Shown: positions 1 through 17,851 of the stretch, piece by piece
Layout of the letters: each line of letters opens with the position of its first letter
Position numbering within the stretch: position 1 is the first letter of the stretch
Assembly: GCA_022736375.1 (NCBI GenBank)
Contig: DZCE01000002.1
Coordinates: 732-64,731, forward strand
Reading direction: 5' to 3'
Source of the DNA: Arcobacter nitrofigilis
GTDB taxonomy: Bacteria > Campylobacterota > Campylobacteria > Campylobacterales > Sulfurovaceae
Length of the DNA: 64,000 nt
Notes under the pieces: generated by a model
Databases searched by the model: none
The model's input: the letters and a program-made list of their open reading frames with translations, nothing else
Told to the model about the DNA's origin: nothing
Position numbers and translations under genes: made by a program

Positions 1-905
1 TAGTATCATTATCTTTTGTGCCATTTATTTTAGTCGTGGCCGGGTAGAAGATATCGCTTAATATATTAGTACTATTATACTTTATGTAATTTATTTTATC
101 CTTTATGCCGTCTAATTTAGCATCGATTGTATCGGGAACGATTCTTAATATATCAGCACTTTTATCCTTTATATCATTTACTTTAGCATTGATTTTATTA
201 GGGATATAGTTTATTATATCAGAACCTTTATCTTTTAAGTCCTGTATCTTATTATCTACATTCTTTAATTTAGAATCGGCCACGGTACCGTAGGTTTCTA
301 TTTTATCCTTTATATCATTTACTTTAGCATTGATTTTATTAGGGATATAGTTTATTATATCAGAACCTTTATCTTTTAAGTCCTGTATCTTATTATCTAC
401 ATTCTTTAATTTAGAATCGGCCACGGTACCGTAGGTTTCTATTTTATCCTTTATATCATTTACTTTAGCATTGATTTTATTAGGGATATAGTTTATTATA
501 TCAGAACCTTTATCTTTTAAGTCCTGTATCTTATTATCTACATTCTTTAATTTAGAATCGGCCACGGTACCGTAGGTTTCTATTTTATCCTTTATATCAT
601 TTACTTTAGCATTGATTTTATTAGGGATATAGTTTATTATCTCCGAAACTTTATCTTTTAAGTCCGGTATTATACCATTTGGGTCATCCAGTTCGTCAGC
701 GATTGCATATGGAATATAGTTTAGTATATCGGAACTTTTATCTTTTAGGTATCTTATTTTGGAATTGATTACTTCGTTATATGTCGCTATAGTATCCTTT
801 ACGTTATTCACCTTGGTTTCAATTGCATTTGGAATATAGTTTAGTATATCGTAACCTTTATCCTTTATGTCTTGTATTTTTTCCTTAAAGTGTCCTATTT
901 TAGTA
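1..905 (-). repeat. Degenerate array of at least 8 KDKxSDI(I/L)NYIP-type 40-47-aa repeats surrounding the perfect copies
   Basis: Hand translation gives IQDIKDKGYDILNYIPNAIETK (~880-815), IRYLKDKSSDILNYIPYAIADE (~760-700), IPDLKDKVSEIINYIPNKINAK (~665-600), three perfect copies, NDIKDKSADILRIVPDTIDAK (178-119) and DGIKDKINYIKYN (~110-70). The array continues to the window edge. Confidence 0.85.
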
Positions 906-3900
906 TCTATAATATTTGGTCCGAAGTCTAACGCATTAGTACCGCCATGCGTTCTCGTATTTGTTAGTGGGGTGTCGACTATATGACTATAATTAGATTT
1001 TTTATCAACTATGTTATTATTAGTCACATCACTTGTAGAATCTAAGGTGCTCCCCTCGCGAATATTGTTAATTTTCGGTTTAACAACACTATCTTCTTTT
1101 AGGAACGCCGGCATCTTGTCCATACCATAATAGCTGACAATTTGCGGTATCCCTAATAACGTGGCTGTTAGTTTGTTCTTATCAGCTATCGTAGGGGCCT
1201 CTTTTATCTTCTTCATAAGATCATTATAGGTTGTTTTAACCCATGATGTAACCTTATCAGACGCGACACTTTCACTATCGACAGGTTCTGGGATTTTCTT
1301 ATCTTCTCCTATTGATTTGAATAATGTTTTATTACTATTATACAGCTCCGTATTCTTGTTTTTTTCTTTGATCTGATTATTAATTCCTATTTTCTTATAT
1401 TTATCTATTCTGGATATAGCCTGATCTAGACTTAAGTTAGCTTTTATATCCTCGACTTTACGCATAGCCTTATCAGTCTTGTCGTCCATTTTTCCTATTA
1501 CAACGTGGGTATGAATGGCTTTCGCGAGGTCATCTCCAAACACAGGTATATATTTGACTACCCCTTCTAACGCTACTAAACCTTTAGTAGTTACGGATAA
1601 ATCTTTGTTTTTTATGTCCGTGAATATTTTAGTTGCCGTATATGCTATACCACCTGCGGCGGCAGCTAAAGCTATTCGTAATGCACCTTTCGCTCCTAAT
1701 GAGTTAGCTAATCCCGAAAGTCCTTGATTTAATCTACTCATCGTTTGAGTGAGCCTGTTACTACTACTTGTAGCATTTCTAGTTCTTCGTCGTCTTCTAG
1801 AGGCACTTGACCCTATGCCACTACCACCGAAACCTAACCCCCTCGGTAGCCTGGATAACGCCACTATACCGGCGACACCAGCTAACATGGTGGTAGCTAT
1901 CTTGCCGGCGACACCAGTTAATAGACTAAACCCACCCTTTACTATGCTCCCGACTCCACCTAGTAGTCCGAATAATTTACTAAATATGTTCTTTTCTTTT
2001 TTCTTGTCTTTCTCACAACAAGCTTCTATTATAATTTTGTCTTCGCCCACACGGCTTGTTAGGCGCTCTCGCCATCCATTAGTTCTGAGTCCATTTCCGT
2101 TGTTACTCTTAGTATTTAGTTTATCAGCCACAACAGTCAATTTAGATACCAAGTCCACTACTCCAATTGTAGATAACAAATCTCGCATTCTATTCTGGAA
2201 TGATTCAGTTATATCACTTCTTCTTCCAACCGTTGAACTTATTATATCATCTATTGCAGTCAAGTGTAATGGGCTAGCATTATCTCGTGTAAAGAGTCTA
2301 AATTTACGTATCACCGTCGGATTAAGATAATCATAATCGGTGATTATCATTTTCTTCAGTTCATCTATATCTTTTGCTTGATAGAAATCACTTACTAGTA
2401 ATTGTCTTAATTTATCTATGTCTAGTAGATCCTCTTCTCTGGTTATAATAGATGAGAATATGCCAGATTTCCCGACAGTGTTTTCGAAGTCGACTAATCT
2501 ATCTCTAGCCGTTGTAAATTCATGATCAGATGTCGGTAATGTTATTCTTGTCGACAATGAGGCTACTATTTGGTCGATATCTATTGTCGAGAACGGATCT
2601 GGCGTGATAGAATAGTTTAATAAACCGCGTATTTTAATTATCCTCATTGGATCTAGGAGATCGGTTTCCGTTTTAACTAGGTCGGCCATACTTGTGCCAT
2701 ATATCGACGATACAGGACCACCATTCAGTAATGCCAGTTTATAGTTATCGATTATTGACGAATTATGTAGGTCGTCTGGTGTGCTAAACAAATCTGCTAT
2801 GTAACTGTAACTAGTGGATCTTAGTTTAAAAATAGCCCTTCTGAATTGTAGTCCGCGCTGAGCATCGTAGTCTATAACAATCGGCTTAGCTAAATTATTT
2901 ACAACCTTTCTGAATTTTCTGTCTGTTAACCATCTACCTATCCTCTTAAATATTCCACCTTTATCCACACCATACATTATCGCGCTTTCTAACTTTGATA
3001 TTTTTAGTGGATTGAGCAGATCGATCGGTTTACGTATCTCATTTCTTATTAGATAGCTTGGTGATAATCCAGCCAAGATATGGGAGTAACGGTGTCCTCC
3101 AGATAGTACACTAAGTTTATAGTTATCGATGATAGACGTTTTATATAAATCATTAGGATTAGAGAATAAATCGGCGATATAGTCAAAGCCGGTGGATCTT
3201 AATCGCAATATAGCTCTATTAAAGTCTGCTGTTCTCATAGCTAATGAATCAGTAAGTACTGGGGTTTCTAATTCTTTAACAACTTTTCTGAATTTGAAGT
3301 TTCTCCAAATTCGTCCAACTCTCTCGGATACAGTGCCACCAATTGGAGCTATACTATATACTATTGCTTTGTTTAGTAGATCTATTTTGATTGGATCAAG
3401 TATATCTATTGGTTTAGTTATCTCGTTAGCTATAATTATCGGTGGTGGAGTCGGTGGAATCGGACCGGCTAATGGGTCGGCTATTCCCAACACTTCAAAT
3501 TTATATTTTCGTATTGTTTTTAAGTCATATAGATCTTTTTCTCTGCTAAAAAGAGAGGCAATCCCAGTATATCCAGCACTGATCAATTTCATTTTAGCTC
3601 TTGTAAACTCCATATGTCGTCTGGCTGCCGAATCCATTACGACCGGTTTTGCTAATTCAGCAACTACATCTTCGAATTTTTTACCTCTCCACCATCTACC
3701 TATTTTAGCAAAAATGCTTTTACCAGGGGTTAGAATAGCATTTTTTAAGTCATCAAAGTAGTAGGGATTTAGCAGTTTAGTTGGTTCATTCCCTAATATA
3801 TCGTCTACTGTCCGTGGTGTCCATCTTTTATACGTTGTAATTTTAGATCTGTTAGTGTTATATTCTTCGTCAACAATGAAATCCCTAAGTTTATTAGCCT

Positions 3901-6589
3901 TTCTTAAATCAAATAATCTCCTCCAGGCCGTTCCACTATCGAGTCCCGTGATTCCGTCGGCATATAAGTTTATCAAGAATGTGCTTATCCTTGTATCGTA
4001 TTCACCTGAACGTAGATCCCTTAGTCTATTTTCGAACTTAGTTTTTAATCCGTCAGGTCCTACGACGTTATGTCGCCATAAAAATAATGTATACCATCTA
4101 CGTTCATCTACCCAACCGAGTACCTTCTTAACTGCCCACCAATTGAGACCTCGTACTTTTTTCCTAAAAGACCTAAATATAACACTTGCTTTATTATAGA
4201 GAAACTCTCTATATAGTTCAAATTTATCTATATTTAATAAGTCAACTGGGTTACTATATATATCCTCTATTCTTGTAGGTATAATGACTTCTTTTTTGAG
4301 TACGTCCAGGCCAAGTAAAGCTTTCTCCCTTAGAGAATGGGCCGTTAATACATTGAGAGTATCTTCCGGGGATACTATCTCTTCAGATATCAAACCTCTT
4401 TTGTCGATTGAATCTTCTTCGGCTATAAGTATCTCTCTGGCTCTTAAGAATCTTTTGGTAAAGTAATTCGATAACTTAGATTTACTAATATTATCTAACT
4501 CTTTTGTTACTGGACTAAATTTACTAATAGTCTGTTCTATTGGATTATCTTTACTAATAGTTTGTTCTATTGGATCATCTTTACTAATAGTTCGTTCCGT
4601 TAGATTAAAGTTATTAATAGTTTGTTTTATCGGACTATCGCTATTAATAGTTTGTTCTAATGGATTATCTGTCTTCGATCCAGCAATATTAGACTTAGAC
4701 GTAGCCGATACTGAATCATTTCCCTTATCAATATATTTAAATATCGAATCTGTATATCTTTTCGCGACATGGTCTTTTCGAATACCAGTCTTCCCGGTAT
4801 CGTTGTTATATTCTAATATGTTGTTTTTGATAAGTTGAGACTTACTATACTTATTAATTACATCGTCTGATAGTTTGATTCTATCCTTTAACGATGAGAT
4901 CTCAGAACTAATATTTATTAAATCGTCCACAGAGGAGGTTTTTATAAGATGTTGTAGATACTCGACCACCTCTTTATTTTTATTTCCGGATATTCCAGCA
5001 TAGAACTCTTCATTATCCATATCTCGTATATCCGGCGAACCACCTTTGGCTACCCATATCGTCAAGACCTCTATAAACTCACGTTTCGTACTTTCTTTGA
5101 AAGATTTTACGTCATCCTTAACTACTAGCTGATTATGTATGTTTTTAATAACGGATGTTATTCCTAATTTATTACTATCTCGAAGCATTGTGGAATCAAT
5201 GTTATTCCCTATTTTCGTCATAGTTGTAAATGTGTTACTTTCGTAGTCATACGTTGCTAACTCATTACTTTCCGAGGAGTCCCTCATTAGAGTAACTTCT
5301 CTTAGAATCCTACTCAATAATCCAGGTATTACGTCCGTGATTGTTTTCTCTGTTTTTATAGAGAATATCGCACCCTCGTTGAGTTCTTTTTCGTCAAGTA
5401 CTTCACTATTTATAACACTCTCGGCACTAAGAAGTTTAGCTAGAGATTTATATCCTTTATTTATAGTACTGCCCGATTCGTAACCTTCTGCTTTTTCGTC
5501 AAAGAATCTTTCTGGATTCAACCACATAAGTCTGGCTTTATTTATAACATCTTTCCCGACATCTGTTTGTTTAATAATCTTACCTAATTTATTGCTAATA
5601 GCTTGTTTACCGACCCCGGTTAGGGACATTGCCGCCAAATCTGCTTTGGTCATCCCCATACTGGCTAGTTGCTCGGCTTGATCGATACCATTCTCAAGCA
5701 TAGATGAGCCGGTTAACATTAGATCTTTTAGTTTATTTTTACCATTAGTAATTCTTTTCGCTAGAGCGCTCTGCCACGCTGTCTGTGTACTGAAATAATC
5801 CACCGTCGATTTAACTGCGTTAGATGTAACAGTTTGTGCGGCCATCTCACTGAGATTAATCTTACTAGTCTCAGGTAGACCAGTGTTCTTTAATATACCT
5901 CTTAGTACATCAGTTATATTAGTGAATATCTCACCATGATACGTAGTTTGTTTTCTAAGCAAGTATACGGAACGATAATTCAATTCCAGCGACTTTCTAT
6001 AGTAGGTCGCTGTTTGCGATACCTGGAAGATCCGCATCTCGCGCATCTCACTGGCCATGATGGATAATAATTTTACCTGGCTCTGTGTACCACCTCTAAT
6101 TAGGTTTTGGGTATCTTTTGTGGTAGCTAAGTTATTAGCGGCGAATAGGTCATTAATTTTATTTCTTATCGACTCCTTTTCTACTTCCTCTTCGGATAAT
6201 CTTGGTGTAGATATACTTCGCTCTTCAATAAGAAGTTCTGTTATTCTATCTTTAAAGCTACCGTCCGGTATATATCCTTTAACAGATTTAAATCCGGACT
6301 TTCCGAGTTCTTTTAATGGTTCCTTTAAATCGTCTAAGGCGGATGATAGTAAGTCTTTTGCGTTATCAAGGTCCGAAAAGTTATCTCCTAGTTCAGGCAT
6401 AGATGATTTAACTATATCCATTACATCGCCTGCTGGATCTAGTGTTAGATTATCTACTGTCTTGGTAGCTACATTCGCACCAAATGATAAAACAGGATTA
6501 CGGTCATTACTAATATCTTCGCCGTTTAACAAACTCTGGTCAAAATCATTATCAAAGCTGAATTCATCTATATCGTCAAATTTTGCCAT
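1..6589 (-). CDS. Giant virion/tail-type protein, N-terminal >2196 codons; C-terminus lies beyond the left edge (candidate tape-measure / injection / tail-lysin-type protein)
   Basis: ATG at 6589-6587 with an AAGGAAAA SD. The frame (first codon bases = 1 mod 3) was hand-translated and is open at 6589, 4549, 3694, 3307, 2932, 2026-1739, 1018-900, 439 and 178-2. No other minus-strand ORF >=60 aa is listed over 6.6 kb, and the plus-strand ORFs here are L/S-rich shadows. A Gly-rich hydrophobic segment LFGLLGGVGSIVKGGFSLLTGVAGKIATTMLAGVAGIVAL (about 1855-1975) is followed by RRRRR. Confidence 0.8.
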   Translation of the reverse strand, partial: MAKFDDIDEFSFDNDFDQSLLNGEDISNDRNPVLSFGANVATKTVDNLTLDPAGDVMDIVKSSMPELGDNFSDLDNAKDLLSSALDDLKEPLKELGKSGFKSVKGYIPDGSFKDRITELLIEERSISTPRLSEEEVEKESIRNKINDLFAANNLATTKDTQNLIRGGTQSQVKLLSIMASEMREMRIFQVSQTATYYRKSLELNYRSVYLLRKQTTYHGEIFTNITDVLRGILKNTGLPETSKINLSEMAAQTVTSNAVKSTVDYFSTQTAWQSALAKRITNGKNKLKDLMLTGSSMLENGIDQAEQLASMGMTKADLAAMSLTGVGKQAISNKLGKIIKQTDVGKDVINKARLMWLNPERFFDEKAEGYESGSTINKGYKSLAKLLSAESVINSEVLDEKELNEGAIFSIKTEKTITDVIPGLLSRILREVTLMRDSSESNELATYDYESNTFTTMTKIGNNIDSTMLRDSNKLGITSVIKNIHNQLVVKDDVKSFKESTKREFIEVLTIWVAKGGSPDIRDMDNEEFYAGISGNKNKEVVEYLQHLIKTSSVDDLINISSEISSLKDRIKLSDDVINKYSKSQLIKNNILEYNNDTGKTGIRKDHVAKRYTDSIFKYIDKGNDSVSATSKSNIAGSKTDNPLEQTINSDSPIKQTINNFNLTERTISKDDPIEQTISKDNPIEQTISKFSPVTKELDNISKSKLSNYFTKRFLRAREILIAEEDSIDKRGLISEEIVSPEDTLNVLTAHSLREKALLGLDVLKKEVIIPTRIEDIYSNPVDLLNIDKFELYREFLYNKASVIFRSFRKKVRGLNWWAVKKVLGWVDERRWYTLFLWRHNVVGPDGLKTKFENRLRDLRSGEYDTRISTFLINLYADGITGLDSGTAWRRLFDLRKANKLRDFIVDEEYNTNRSKITTYKRWTPRTVDDILGNEPTKLLNPYYFDDLKNAILTPGKSIFAKIGRWWRGKKFEDVVAELAKPVVMDSAARRHMEFTRAKMKLISAGYTGIASLFSREKDLYDLKTIRKYKFEVLGIADPLAGPIPPTPPPIIIANEITKPIDILDPIKIDLLNKAIVYSIAPIGGTVSERVGRIWRNFKFRKVVKELETPVLTDSLAMRTADFNRAILRLRSTGFDYIADLFSNPNDLYKTSIIDNYKLSVLSGGHRYSHILAGLSPSYLIRNEIRKPIDLLNPLKISKLESAIMYGVDKGGIFKRIGRWLTDRKFRKVVNNLAKPIVIDYDAQRGLQFRRAIFKLRSTSYSYIADLFSTPDDLHNSSIIDNYKLALLNGGPVSSIYGTSMADLVKTETDLLDPMRIIKIRGLLNYSITPDPFSTIDIDQIVASLSTRITLPTSDHEFTTARDRLVDFENTVGKSGIFSSIITREEDLLDIDKLRQLLVSDFYQAKDIDELKKMIITDYDYLNPTVIRKFRLFTRDNASPLHLTAIDDIISSTVGRRSDITESFQNRMRDLLSTIGVVDLVSKLTVVADKLNTKSNNGNGLRTNGWRERLTSRVGEDKIIIEACCEKDKKKEKNIFSKLFGLLGGVGSIVKGGFSLLTGVAGKIATTMLAGVAGIVALSRLPRGLGFGGSGIGSSASRRRRRTRNATSSSNRLTQTMSRLNQGLSGLANSLGAKGALRIALAAAAGGIAYTATKIFTDIKNKDLSVTTKGLVALEGVVKYIPVFGDDLAKAIHTHVVIGKMDDKTDKAMRKVEDIKANLSLDQAISRIDKYKKIGINNQIKEKNKNTELYNSNKTLFKSIGEDKKIPEPVDSESVASDKVTSWVKTTYNDLMKKIKEAPTIADKNKLTATLLGIPQIVSYYGMDKMPAFLKEDSVVKPKINNIREGSTLDSTSDVTNNNIVDKKSNYSHIVDTPLTNTRTHGGTNALDFGPNIIDTKIGHFKEKIQDIKDKGYDILNYIPNAIETKVNNVKDTIATYNEVINSKIRYLKDKSSDILNYIPYAIADELDDPNGIIPDLKDKVSEIINYIPNKINAKVNDIKDKIETYGTVADSKLKNVDNKIQDLKDKGSDIINYIPNKINAKVNDIKDKIETYGTVADSKLKNVDNKIQDLKDKGSDIINYIPNKINAKVNDIKDKIETYGTVADSKLKNVDNKIQDLKDKGSDIINYIPNKINAKVNDIKDKSADILRIVPDTIDAKLDGIKDKINYIKYNSTNILSDIFYPATTKINGTKDNDT
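160..640 (-). repeat. Perfect in-frame tandem repeat, 141-bp unit x 3.4 (units start at 160, 301, 442 and 583)
   Basis: Copies 160-300, 301-441 and 442-582 are base-for-base identical, and 583-640 is identical up to the divergence point. Each unit encodes the 47-aa sequence IETYGTVADSKLKNVDNKIQDLKDKGSDIINYIPNKINAKVNDIKDK in the giant-ORF frame. Confidence 0.95.
2560..3760 (-). repeat. Three tandem divergent ~125-129-aa coding modules inside the giant ORF (approximate bounds)
   Basis: Anchor strings are KIGRWWRGKKFEDVVAELAKP (W codon 3692-3694), RVGRIWRNFKFRKVVKELETP (3305-3307) and RIGRWLTDRKFRKVVNNLAKP (2930-2932). Spacings are 387 and 375 bp. Each is followed by a ...LRSTxxxYIADLFSxPxDL...IIDNYKL block. 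Confidence 0.8.
4521..4670 (-). repeat. 30-bp x 5 in-frame tandem repeat (decapeptide DNPIEQTISK family)
   Basis: The string TTACTAATAG / TTATTAATAG / CTATTAATAG recurs at 4521, 4551, 4581, 4611 and 4641. The units translate as DNPLEQTINS, DSPIKQTINN, FNLTERTISK, DDPIEQTISK and DNPIEQTISK. Confidence 0.9.
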
Positions 6590-8165: not shown

Positions 8166-8879
8166 CTATTTTAGCGGAACATCCGTTACAGTGAATCCTT
8201 TTTCATTAAATTTAGAATTTCCCTTAGAATTTAGATTACCGTTAATTGTTACATTGCTATTAAATACAACATTTGCGGTGTTAAAAGTTATCTCACCAGC
8301 TGATATCTCTACAGATGAACCATTTACATTCATAATAGCCTTACCTGTCTTTGTGCTAAAGTCGAATTTGAATACAGCTTTCTCGCCATTGTTATTTGTA
8401 GTATGTACAAACAGTTCTCCAGTTTTTGGCGAAATACCGACCGCCCATGAATTCTTTTGATCCCGTGGCACTTTCTGAGGTTTCTTTAAGTTACTAAATA
8501 GGAACAGTGCTTGTTCTTGGGGGATCAGATCCTCTTGCCCATCCCAAGATGACCAGTAGTAATCGTTGGATAGTATATTTTTCCATATAAATACCTCCAT
8601 ACCTTTTACCACTGTAGGCGGAAGAGCTCTATTAGAGTTCATAGATAACCAAGGCATTTTTAGACCCAACCCCACTTTCTTATTTGCACTTTGTTTATTT
8701 CCTTTACTATCCGTATATTTTGACTTAACATCTTTAGTCTTATCTATAGGCATATCTGCGTCAGGTACAACTGATTGTGATGGATTAACATCTAAATACA
8801 ATTGTCCTTCTTCCAAATCTTTCGTCGCTATACCTGTTCCCATTATAACAAGTATAGCACCATTACCAGAATTTGACAT
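8166..8879 (-). CDS. hypothetical virion protein, possible baseplate central spike/needle (gpV / gp5-tip-like C-terminus)
   Basis: The track start is TTG 8903; ATG 8879 (MSNSGNG...) has an AAGGAG SD 7 nt upstream. The C-terminus is a run of short beta-strand repeats (EISAGEITFNTANVVFNSNVTINGNLNSKGNSKF). It is the first gene of the operon that ends in the giant ORF. The functional call is inference only. Confidence 0.3.
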   Translation of the reverse strand: MSNSGNGAILVIMGTGIATKDLEEGQLYLDVNPSQSVVPDADMPIDKTKDVKSKYTDSKGNKQSANKKVGLGLKMPWLSMNSNRALPPTVVKGMEVFIWKNILSNDYYWSSWDGQEDLIPQEQALFLFSNLKKPQKVPRDQKNSWAVGISPKTGELFVHTTNNNGEKAVFKFDFSTKTGKAIMNVNGSSVEISAGEITFNTANVVFNSNVTINGNLNSKGNSKFNEKGFTVTDVPLK

Positions 8880-8907
8880 AGTAGTCTCCTTTCTAATGTA
8901 CAATATA

Positions 8908-15229: not shown

Positions 15230-17851
15230 ATGAATACTAAGAATGCAATTTCTGAGCAAGAGAAGGTAATAGAAGAATTCCGGAAGTTTTTTATTCCAGC
15301 AGAGCGGATCAATGGCGAATCGATAGTTGATTATTCTGATCTATTAAATGTGGCTCATTCGACAGCTGGTATCATCGGTAATAACTATGATACATTGGAT
15401 CTGTTTCCGGAGATACGAATAGCACTTGGGCTTATTTCAGGATTTATTATCTCTCCAAATGGTGGTAACGAAGGGGTATCGAAGAAATATCATATCTTAG
15501 ACACTAAACTAAATCAGGGGTTATTATCCAAATGCGAAAAAACTATACAGTCTTTTATAAATAAGGAGATGAGCGATATAGATTTATATAACGAGATTTG
15601 GTCTATACGTGTAACAGACGGTGCTGTGGCTAGGCTTGTTCTAAATAGAGGAGAATTGATTAATTTTTTAAAGAAGATAAAGTCTAATTCCAGCGATGTG
15701 ATAACGATGAGTAAAGATCCGATAAGTGGATTCAAGCAGAATCCACTTATCGACGACGTTATTACATTATCGGTCACCGACAAAATTAAACTTCCAGATA
15801 ATAAAAATTCTACCTCAATAACATTATTTCAGGACGTTCAGGATGATGTAATAAAAAACTGGGGGTTAAATATCCTGTCCGACCCTATAATCGCTGGGTT
15901 GAACTATATGGAGATGGAAGAGAGGGCAACTTTACTATCTAAAAGTACGTCTCCGGGGAGAGATGGTGTATTAAGTTCAGAAATAATTAGTAAAATAGAT
16001 GAACTTGTAAACGCTAGGCAAGATAATAGTTTAGCTATTAATGGTCTTAATCATGGTATACATGTTCCAAAAGGCGATAAAGAGGGGGGGCATATCTACA
16101 TCAGATTACCAGCATCTTCAATTGTCCCTATTATTAACAAGAGCGATCTTAATAAACCAAAAGCTTTTATGGTTGTATTAGACGAACTATATTCTCCGTA
16201 TGATGTAACTAACTTTAGAGGCAACACAAACTACCTTGAGAAAATAATAAATAACAGGATACAAGGGAATAACATAGATAAAAGTGATGGTCTTAAAGTA
16301 AAGATTCTAAATAATATGCCAGGCCTATATAGAGAGGTTATAAGAAGACATATAAAAGATAGACTATATGAAATAATGGGTTCTAAAAATATAGATGTGG
16401 AACTACCAAATGATGTATTGGAAGTTCTATTCAACAGGGGATTAAGTGCGAAGAAAGCCAATATATTGTTCCTAACCACCGAACAGTTATCTTATCAAGC
16501 TTTGGAATATAGAAAAAATGGAACTGGAGCGAGTCTATTGGAGAGGGTGAATCTATTACTTAGTTTTAGATCAGTTGTTTTCTTACACAATATCCATACC
16601 TCAATGAGGAACGCGATACCTAGGAAAACTGTAAAATATATAATGCCCGATTCGGTTAAAGATCCAGTTAAAGCAGGTAAAGACTTCATAAATATAACAA
16701 ACTCGAAAAATGCAGGACTACTTCCAACCGGAGATATGAATCTAAGAGCGTTGATGCAAAATATGGCGAACCAAGGAGTGACGTATATTCTAGAACATAT
16801 AAATTTCCCTAAGATAGAAATAAGTTATGAGGAATCAACTACTGCTATTCCGGTAAACACCGAACTTGAAAACATGCTTATGGAGAGGATGATTGCCGCA
16901 TTAAATATAAAGCCAAGTATGATAACTAGTAGGGCAGCGTTCGCTACTGAATTAAAACAGGGTGAAAATGATATAAATCGTATGATAAGCGATAATCAGT
17001 ACAAATTTATAGAAAGTCATAGCAAATTTGTACAAATGGTGCTTAGTAATAATATGTACTTAATCAAAAAGCTCGAAGATATAATAAGGGCAGATAAAGC
17101 TCAAGTATTTAACGCGATACCTAAAAATGTCAGGATGGGATTAGATAGTAACATATTGACGGAGGATGAGGTGATACGATATGTAGTCTATCATATGATT
17201 ATTGCGAACACTAAATTAGTATTACCTAGTTTGGAAAAAGCAAATAATGATCCACTAAAAGAGTCATATATTAACTTCAAGACCGTTGTAGATGAGATGT
17301 TCGCAGAGTTCCTAGATAATGGGGCAGCTATACCATCCTCGATAACCGAGAGATATGGCAGTGATTTAGATGGTATGGTATACTTATTCAAATTAGGACT
17401 ATCGTTAGATTGGTGGGATAAAAACGGATTCATGAATGGCGCTGTACTGGATACATTTACGACCAATGAAGATGGATTATCTGAAAATCCAATACTGAAT
17501 AAGGCTCATATGTTCTTCCATAATTTAGCATTATCATATCAAAATGCGGAAAAACAAAGACTTGATATCGAGTCTAACGAAAAGGCCGCAAATGTTAAAA
17601 ATGATAAAAAAGTACAAAAATTAAAAGAGAAACTTGGAGATAAAGAGGATAGAAAAGATATTGATACCACCGGTTCCGGTGATATAGACCAAACAATAGA
17701 GGAGTCTTCAGATAAATCAAAAGATGATAATGATGACGATATAGACCAAACAATAGAGGAGTCTTCAGATAAATCAAAAGATGATAATGATGACGATAAT
17801 CCTATAGATAATAAAGCTGGTGTAAAAAAAGATAGCGATACAGATATATAG
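15230..17851 (+). CDS. large hypothetical protein, 873 aa, with an acidic repeat C-terminus
   Basis: ATG 15230 with an AGGGAG SD. The last ~90 aa are strongly acidic and include two perfect 19-aa copies of DIDQTIEESSDKSKDDNDD. The function cannot be supported; the size would fit a jumbo-phage portal but no motif confirms this. Confidence 0.6.
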   Translation: MNTKNAISEQEKVIEEFRKFFIPAERINGESIVDYSDLLNVAHSTAGIIGNNYDTLDLFPEIRIALGLISGFIISPNGGNEGVSKKYHILDTKLNQGLLSKCEKTIQSFINKEMSDIDLYNEIWSIRVTDGAVARLVLNRGELINFLKKIKSNSSDVITMSKDPISGFKQNPLIDDVITLSVTDKIKLPDNKNSTSITLFQDVQDDVIKNWGLNILSDPIIAGLNYMEMEERATLLSKSTSPGRDGVLSSEIISKIDELVNARQDNSLAINGLNHGIHVPKGDKEGGHIYIRLPASSIVPIINKSDLNKPKAFMVVLDELYSPYDVTNFRGNTNYLEKIINNRIQGNNIDKSDGLKVKILNNMPGLYREVIRRHIKDRLYEIMGSKNIDVELPNDVLEVLFNRGLSAKKANILFLTTEQLSYQALEYRKNGTGASLLERVNLLLSFRSVVFLHNIHTSMRNAIPRKTVKYIMPDSVKDPVKAGKDFINITNSKNAGLLPTGDMNLRALMQNMANQGVTYILEHINFPKIEISYEESTTAIPVNTELENMLMERMIAALNIKPSMITSRAAFATELKQGENDINRMISDNQYKFIESHSKFVQMVLSNNMYLIKKLEDIIRADKAQVFNAIPKNVRMGLDSNILTEDEVIRYVVYHMIIANTKLVLPSLEKANNDPLKESYINFKTVVDEMFAEFLDNGAAIPSSITERYGSDLDGMVYLFKLGLSLDWWDKNGFMNGAVLDTFTTNEDGLSENPILNKAHMFFHNLALSYQNAEKQRLDIESNEKAANVKNDKKVQKLKEKLGDKEDRKDIDTTGSGDIDQTIEESSDKSKDDNDDDIDQTIEESSDKSKDDNDDDNPIDNKAGVKKDSDTDI
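17681..17798 (+). repeat. 57-bp x 2 perfect in-frame tandem repeat (acidic 19-mer)
   Basis: 17681-17737 and 17738-17794 are identical (GATATAGACCAAACAATAGAGGAGTCTTCAGATAAATCAAAAGATGATAATGATGAC). They encode DIDQTIEESSDKSKDDNDD at the C-terminus of the 873-aa protein. Confidence 0.95.

Follow-up and report, generated by a model that had tools for sequence, protein, structure and literature searches.

A young and probably variable array of helical units in the giant gp181-type tail protein of a phiKZ-like jumbo phage from cave biofilms

Tape measure protein (TMP) length sets tail length in lambda, T4 and TP901-1, according to the references that PMC13585406 and PMC8616913 cite on this point, and the first of these papers, where it deals with the matter, counts tandem repeats among the contributors to variation in tape-measure length. 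Variable repeats within TMPs were described by Katsura & Hendrix 1984, Pedersen 2000 and Belcaid 2011, as cited in the same two papers. In the canonical cases, lambda gpH, the TP901-1 TMP and the TMPs of mycobacteriophages, recombination duplicates or deletes helical units in frame. The giant gp181-type proteins of phiKZ-like, nucleus-forming and related jumbo phages are essential, conserved and mechanistically obscure, and a ruler role is assumed for them. Common to phiKZ gp181 (orf181), SPN3US gp239, 201phi2-1 gp276 and Goslar gp204 (Goslar_00232) is a giant tail gene by the baseplate genes, and these orthologues are regarded as the likely tape measure. PMC5380687 describes the 246-kDa phiKZ protein as a lysin of the virion and places it at the cell-puncturing device.

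The protein considered here is a further member of this family. The window, the whole 64,000-nt stretch of DNA that was analysed, codes for several split RNA polymerase beta/beta' subunits, a major head protein, virion structural proteins and an SbcC-like ATPase, and on its gene content it is classed as a phiKZ-like jumbo phage. The giant ORF lies on the minus strand (2..6589), with its ATG at 6589 and 2196 codons inside the window, and has its 3' end beyond it, giving a protein of more than 2196 aa. Upstream of it is a baseplate-assembly-protein-like gene (8166..8903, minus strand; phrog_3216), as orf182 lies beside orf181 in phiKZ. The conserved N-terminal region (4676..6568, minus strand; aa 8-638) is gp181-like, matching phrog_3201 with an E value of 4e-40, and in tblastn it hits one gene each in 73-79 jumbo-phage records, always the giant lysin or 'tail fiber' gene. 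The phages concerned include Goslar, PhiEaH1, RSL2/RSF1, PCH45, Serratia and Klebsiella jumbo phages and phiKZ-like Pseudomonas phages, and the labels on the matched genes range over chitinase, lytic transglycosylase, tail lysozyme, tail-associated endolysin and 'tail fiber'; the Goslar counterpart is a 2252-aa gene adjoining the homologue of phiKZ ORF179. Among 5.8 billion proteins, 49 homologues of 1500-3100 aa were found, and between them the peptidoglycan-hydrolase Pfam domains are swapped (SLT, GH19, NlpC/P60, amidase_2, M23, VanY, glucosaminidase and phage lysozyme). On these sequence grounds the giant ORF is assigned to the phiKZ gp181 family of lysin-carrying tail proteins, at only 21-26% identity to the gp181 orthologues. 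Megablast of the giant gene against 50,697 phage records gave zero matches, as did phmmer of the protein against PDB sequences.

Shared with the gp181 orthologues are the N-terminal ~600 aa, ~125-aa modules, a DGDG-type motif, a basic tract and a Gly-rich segment; C-terminal muralytic domain(s) would be shared as well if a second contig (L006, see below) continues the gene. The family-typical core (1622..2101, minus strand) consists of NGNGLRTNGWRERL, which carries the DGDG-type motif, a Cys pair with a Lys-rich tract (CCEKDKKKEK), a Gly-rich hydrophobic segment that forms the hydropathy maximum (aa 1536-1581), RRRRR and a second hydrophobic segment (aa 1636-1656). As judged by inspection rather than with a profile, the order of these landmarks (NGNGLRTNGWRERL, basic tract, Gly-rich segment, RRRRR) is the same in the homologues P0002, P0009, P0016 and others. 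Three ~125-aa modules at window 2560-3760 follow the pattern ...KPIDLLNP.KI..L...I.Y......RKFRKVV..L.KPV..D...; they match in position the 'DVYV.G...P.L......G.Y.D..TG..I' modules of typical gp181 homologues, the sequences being hardly alike.

Beyond this core, typical gp181 members have conserved helical 'YAQYGF' domains, which come after the hydrophobic segment and ahead of the lysin. In the present protein their place is taken by a long array of LKDK-type repeats in the C-terminal third. Within it, a 141-nt period is perfect over 160..640 (minus-strand gene), that is over 481 nt or 3.41 copies coding for aa 1984-2144. Direct string comparison found base-for-base identity across the units 160-300, 301-441 and 442-582, the first mismatch of the period at 641 and no extension to the left of 160, and Tandem Repeats Finder reported 160-670 with a period of 141, 3.6 copies and 98% matches. 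Three identical units continuing identically to 640 had been noticed in an earlier, sequence-only reading of this DNA, and both methods confirm them. A perfect period of 481 nt cannot have arisen by chance. The array is in frame within the sole long ORF that crosses it (minus strand, 6589..2). The same reading had described the neighbouring copies as diverged, which agrees with a repeat search of the window: older copies flank the array on both sides at 66-74% DNA identity, and at the protein level the flanking copies are ~59% identical to the 47-aa unit (23/39 and 13/22).

In the register of the LKDK motif the 47-aa unit is made of LKDKGSDIINYIPNKINAKVND (22 aa) followed by IKDKIETYGTVADSKLKNVDNKIQD (25 aa), and it contains 9 Lys, 8 acidic residues and one Pro. 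The perfect 141-bp units are the youngest layer of a long Pro/Gly-punctuated LKDK array built from such 22-aa and 25-aa sub-units. The part of this degenerate amphipathic-helix array that lies in the window (2..868, minus strand; aa 1908-2196) begins at aa 1908 and reaches the window start; past this point it runs for at least 211 aa further in L001, a contig from another assembly, and at least 378 aa more are found on L006. The array as a whole is at least 900 aa long.

The hydrophobic periodicity of aa 1908-2196 has a sharp peak at 3.6 residues and no power at 3.5 or 3.67, which indicates a plain amphipathic alpha-helix in which 47 aa make 13 turns. A canonical heptad coiled coil was considered for the unit and is ruled out by the zero power at period 3.5. 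The suggestion that the units form an extended, 'heptad-like' helix is thus borne out as to the helix, by the 3.6 periodicity, by AlphaFold and by apolipoprotein-like profiles, and fails as to the heptads. AlphaFold2 run without an alignment gave two long helices spanning nearly all 316 residues of the array region, at low confidence (pLDDT 56). Pfam matches to the giant protein include several helical-repeat families below threshold, namely Baculo_PEP_C, Apolipoprotein A1/A4/E, ApoO, XhlA and YtxH; that to Apolipoprotein A1/A4/E (PF01442) has an E value of 8.8e-7 and 29.2 bits, far under the gathering cut-off of 90 bits. The exchangeable apolipoproteins ApoA-I, A-IV and E are likewise tandem Pro/Gly-punctuated amphipathic helices, of ~22 residues each. 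At 29 bits against 90 this is a resemblance in the style of repeat and not homology.

The end of the gene seems to lie on another contig. A HMMER search with the L001 array (aa 1881-2407 of the L001 protein) against 1.84 billion representatives returned one strong match, P0051 (924 aa), encoded on L006 (38.6 kb), which comes from the same sample as L001. At its start L006 codes for the 378 further residues of LKDK repeats, followed by a stop, a frame change and then the P0051 ORF. P0051 contains an NlpC/P60 domain (PF00877, 57.6 bits, with matches to NlpC/P60 structures in the PDB) and a lysozyme-like region, and it matches the final 635 residues of P0002 at 37% identity; L006 also codes for a piece of a jumbo-phage DNA polymerase and another RNAP beta subunit, and its G+C content is the same. 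Because of the LKDK repeats, the likeness of P0051 to the P0002 C-terminus, the jumbo-phage genes and the G+C content, L006 is probably the continuation of the giant gene and would add an NlpC/P60 plus lysozyme-like C-terminus, where the gp181 orthologues have SLT or GH19. The array would then probably be located between the Gly-rich membrane-like segment and the hydrolase domains on L006. At the L001-L006 junction no overlap was found between the two contigs, an exact-pattern scan of metagenome contigs with the end of L001 found nothing, and a homologue search with the C-terminal 459 aa gave zero matches. At 1081-1210 of L006 the LKDK array is closed by a TAA, created by 17 inserted nt (TAATTCGCATATAAC plus TA) that the next copy of the module does not have; the stop before the 924-aa hydrolase ORF may mark a genuine split of the gene, or come from a frameshift or from mis-assembly within the repeats.

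The nearest relative found, the metagenomic protein P0002 (3101 aa), is 37% identical over the N-terminal 44% and in the C-terminal hydrolase part, and its architecture is the same, in that arrays of helical repeats follow the membrane-like segment and precede NlpC/P60. The repeats of P0002 have no sequence relation to those of the present protein, one set being of ~60 aa ('KDPVKKN...IP..V..IG..NLPKK') and another of ~70 aa ('ELK.LLEEAK..GSKM'), and they are diverged rather than perfect. Since unrelated helical arrays occupy the same position, this region is a spacer that varies between lineages. The other HMMER matches of the L001 array are weak (21-34% identity), and the best of the non-orthologous ones are apolipoprotein-like KDK repeats of 44 aa placed after Gly-zipper segments in canonical tape measure proteins. 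Four of the seven further matches that were scanned with Pfam are canonical tape measure proteins (PF20155 TMP_3 or PF10145 PhageMin_Tail) with apolipoprotein-like repeats, and among all the matches checked for internal tandem repeats two, P0054 and P0063, have a 44-aa period. In P0054, a PF20155 TMP, the 44-aa repeats are punctuated by KDK and come after a Gly-zipper region, and copies are up to 89% identical.

The same phage was recovered, by exact look-up with a neighbouring gene product, from the JGI assemblies 3300000232 (L001, 38 kb) and 3300000235 (contig L002) and from the Logan assemblies of SRR407181 and SRR1559230; seven public runs (X1 to X7) contain it, all as Logan contigs. Searches for related loci in viral contigs and metagenome contigs found none. 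Over 17,446 nt L001 matches the window at every base outside the array. Its own array has two full units and a 58-nt partial one (2.41 copies), with one substitution in the first unit (Gly to Ser) and three within 6 nt in the second (two silent, one Ala to Val), all four being G:C>A:T transitions. The sequence-only reading had proposed a recent expansion, and the perfect periodicity, together with this otherwise identical contig of 2.41 copies, speaks for it. The relatives compared do not share the perfect copies, and tandem repeats of at least 80% identity occur in none of the 49 sampled gp181 homologues.

The L002 contig stops inside the array and carries one further substitution. Logan contigs of other runs show the SNPs of L001 and L002 again, C>T at 289/571 being present in X7 and X1 and G>A at 485 in X5, and G>T at 293 is an additional variant among those of X1, X5 and X7; because of this recurrence in X1, X5 and X7 the L001/L002 SNPs are not errors of one assembly. 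Units of different sequence are thus present both within and between samples. The L001 substitutions lie inside one GC-rich 13-mer (GGTACCGTGGCCG) of the AT-rich unit, at window 279-289 with equivalents at 420-430 and 561-571. Avoidance of restriction sites was considered for the changes in GGTACCGTGGCCG and rejected, GGTACC being observed 12 times against 7.8 expected and GGCC 50 times against 61, so that neither is avoided.

Variation in the number of units is supported by two short-read assemblies and by depth. In Logan (k=31) the array folds, as expected, into two pieces, one of 143 nt that occurs n times and one of 58 nt that occurs n+1 times. The depths of the two pieces compared with the flank, which as ratios from stretches of 58-143 nt are noisy, were 1.85x and 3.0x in X2, 3.0x and 4.5x in X3, and 2.9x and 4.4x in X4; X7 gave 2.8x for the 143-nt piece, and X6 gave 2.3x and 4.0x, two values that disagree. 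In X1 the flank has a depth of ~24 and the common part of the unit 57.7, or 2.36x, and at least four versions of the SNP cluster are present: clean at 17.6-36.5, three-SNP at 16.3, one-SNP at 7.1 and five-SNP at 8.4. These depths fit a mixture of ~65% two-unit genomes of the L001 type and ~35% three-unit clean genomes. The Logan runs probably share raw data with the JGI assemblies, so the two kinds of evidence are not fully independent.

An artefact of assembly is one alternative to a three-unit allele: the three perfect units might reflect consensus smoothing and arbitrary de Bruijn turns over a two-unit, L001-like population. A perfect repeat of 481 nt is beyond the span of reads of 100-150 nt and, since no read crosses it, 3.41 copies in the window and 2.41 in L001 may each be an assembler's choice. 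The array is also a spot where assemblies of this phage break or miscount, three assemblies having given three results and the 3' part of the gene being split over contigs; a collapse of this kind had been foreseen from the sequence, and it is seen in the break of L002 within the repeat and in the folding of the Logan contigs into 143-nt and 58-nt pieces. L001, identical elsewhere, has fewer copies and SNPs, the window unit equals what the two L001 units have in common once their SNPs are removed, the X2 depth fits two units, and the window shares most k-mers with X1/X2. However, unit depth in X3, X4 and X7 is 2.8-3.0x the flank and that of the 58-mer 4.4-4.5x, as expected for 3 + 0.41 units, and in X1 contigs of the SNP-free unit stand at 17.6-36.5 beside SNP-bearing ones at 16.3 and 7-8, the totals fitting a mixture that includes a three-unit clean allele. 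An artefact is judged unlikely. The window unit itself fits equally an ancestral or homogenised allele and a product of consensus smoothing; a single unequal crossover in the L001 allele would not give the window allele, as the outer units would retain their SNPs. Of the proposal that the array is variable, then, the variation of unit sequence between and within runs stands, and that between two and three copies, supported by assemblies and depth, falls short of proof from short reads.

The giant gene contains a second variable repeat, of five 30-nt units at 4520..4669 (minus strand; aa 641-690) coding for the decapeptide D-x-P-I-E-Q-T-I-S-K. L002 is short by exactly one unit, and the X5 Logan flank contig has 6021 nt where X1/X2 have 6051 nt, a difference that the same loss of 30 nt would account for. 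Elsewhere, at window 17681-17798, a base-perfect tandem repeat (57 nt x 2.1) with an acidic DIDQTIEESSDKSKDDNDD unit sits near the 3' end of the gene for an 873-aa virion structural protein (15230-17851, phrog_3004), and this may be another variable locus.

Run SRR1559230 and samples TB_PC08_64 and TB_PC08_3 are from sulfur-oxidising biofilms of the Frasassi cave (Pozzo dei Cristalli), sampled in May and June 2008, in which Sulfurovum-like Campylobacterota were dominant (PMC4288042). The phage also occurs in a 2019 biofilm study, and 9% of its k-mers are found in a 2025 cave metagenome. Its presence in cave data from 2008, 2019 and 2025 means that the lineage persisted there for years. The Sulfurovum-dominated community, together with a G+C content of 32-39%, hints at a host among the Campylobacterota.

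The description that we favour, with some reserve, is of young, variable helical spacer units in a gp181-type tail protein that change either a measured length or the reach of a hydrolase. Units would come and go through unequal homologous recombination between the 141-bp repeats, or through slippage between them in replication. Each unit would add 47 residues, or ~7 nm if fully alpha-helical (1.5 Angstrom per residue), to an extended helical spacer, and the added unit would alter either the length that is measured inside the tail tube or how far the hydrolase end can reach once ejected. In T4-type tails a ring of the tube or sheath is ~4 nm, and ~7 nm is close to two rings. By analogy with the canonical TMPs it is plausible that tail length changes with the number of units. 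The gp181-type giant protein probably serves both as tape measure and as ejection protein, and as to functional consequence a 'ruler' and a 'post-ejection spacer' are given roughly equal weight. A tape measure was among the options raised in the sequence-only reading; it fits the identity of the gene as gp181-type, and is weakened by the want of a canonical TMP domain, none of the TMP signature families (PF10145, PF20155, TIGR01760) being among the Pfam matches of the giant protein at E<=1. A protein of more than 2400 aa, and possibly of more than 3700 aa with L006, would be far too long for a normal tail if extended throughout, so any ruler must be part of it only, and the array need not be that part.

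The LKDK array may have nothing to do with measurement, and may be an apolipoprotein-like segment of the ejected protein that interacts with membrane or periplasm, lies along the envelope or crosses it, and places the NlpC/P60 and lysozyme domains, in which case the number of units would be near neutral, or would tune reach in the periplasm rather than tail length. The 3.6 periodicity of a straight amphipathic helix, the sub-threshold matches to Apolipoprotein A1/A4/E, ApoO, YtxH and XhlA, and the position of the array, which follows the Gly-rich hydrophobic segment at once and precedes the hydrolases, are all in keeping with this, as are the excessive length of the whole protein for an all-ruler and the quite different helical repeats of P0002 at the same place, which would be expected of a loosely constrained spacer. 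However, similar repeats are present in canonical tape measure proteins, for which tail length is known to depend on the length of the protein, and lipid binding rests on resemblance, every Pfam match being under its gathering score. A role of this kind is regarded as less likely than not. Exposure at the surface, with repeat number varying antigenicity or host range, was the other option raised from the sequence, and both PHROG and RefSeq label the family 'tail fiber protein'. It is contradicted by the internal Gly-rich hydrophobic segments and swapped peptidoglycan hydrolases of the family and by the placing of phiKZ gp181 at the cell-puncturing device or as tape measure rather than in fibres; a Pfam search of the giant protein, moreover, found no receptor-binding or beta-helix domain. 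We consider a fibre highly improbable.

If the spacer units do act on a length, the variation seen could extend to the virions themselves. In this reading two-unit and three-unit alleles co-exist in the natural population, along with point variants and a variable 30-bp repeat, and virions within one biofilm would differ in steps of ~7 nm, in tail length or in the reach of the ejected lysin across the envelope; taken as a whole this picture is speculative and rather improbable. If it is true, the co-existing alleles make the unproven idea that gp181 is a tape measure testable, through changes of helical units in a cultivable relative. The locus offers a natural unit of 47 aa, 13 helical turns and ~7 nm that is apparently gained and lost in the wild. 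A variable spacer between a membrane-like segment and wall-cutting domains also suggests where in such a protein a change of length is tolerated, and gives a simple design for a test of the ruler.

Variation of helical repeats in tape-measure proteins is already a known principle, and in its mode, the duplication and loss of in-frame helical units, the present array resembles the canonical cases. It differs in that those proteins have a PF10145, PF20155 or TIGR01760-type domain, whereas the giant protein is without one and belongs to a contractile-tailed jumbo phage. What is new is that the array belongs to a gp181-type protein, from an uncultured cave jumbo phage, and that a very long LKDK array replaces the usual post-membrane domains of this family. 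New also is the evidence, which supports rather than establishes it, that alleles of such an array co-exist in one natural population.
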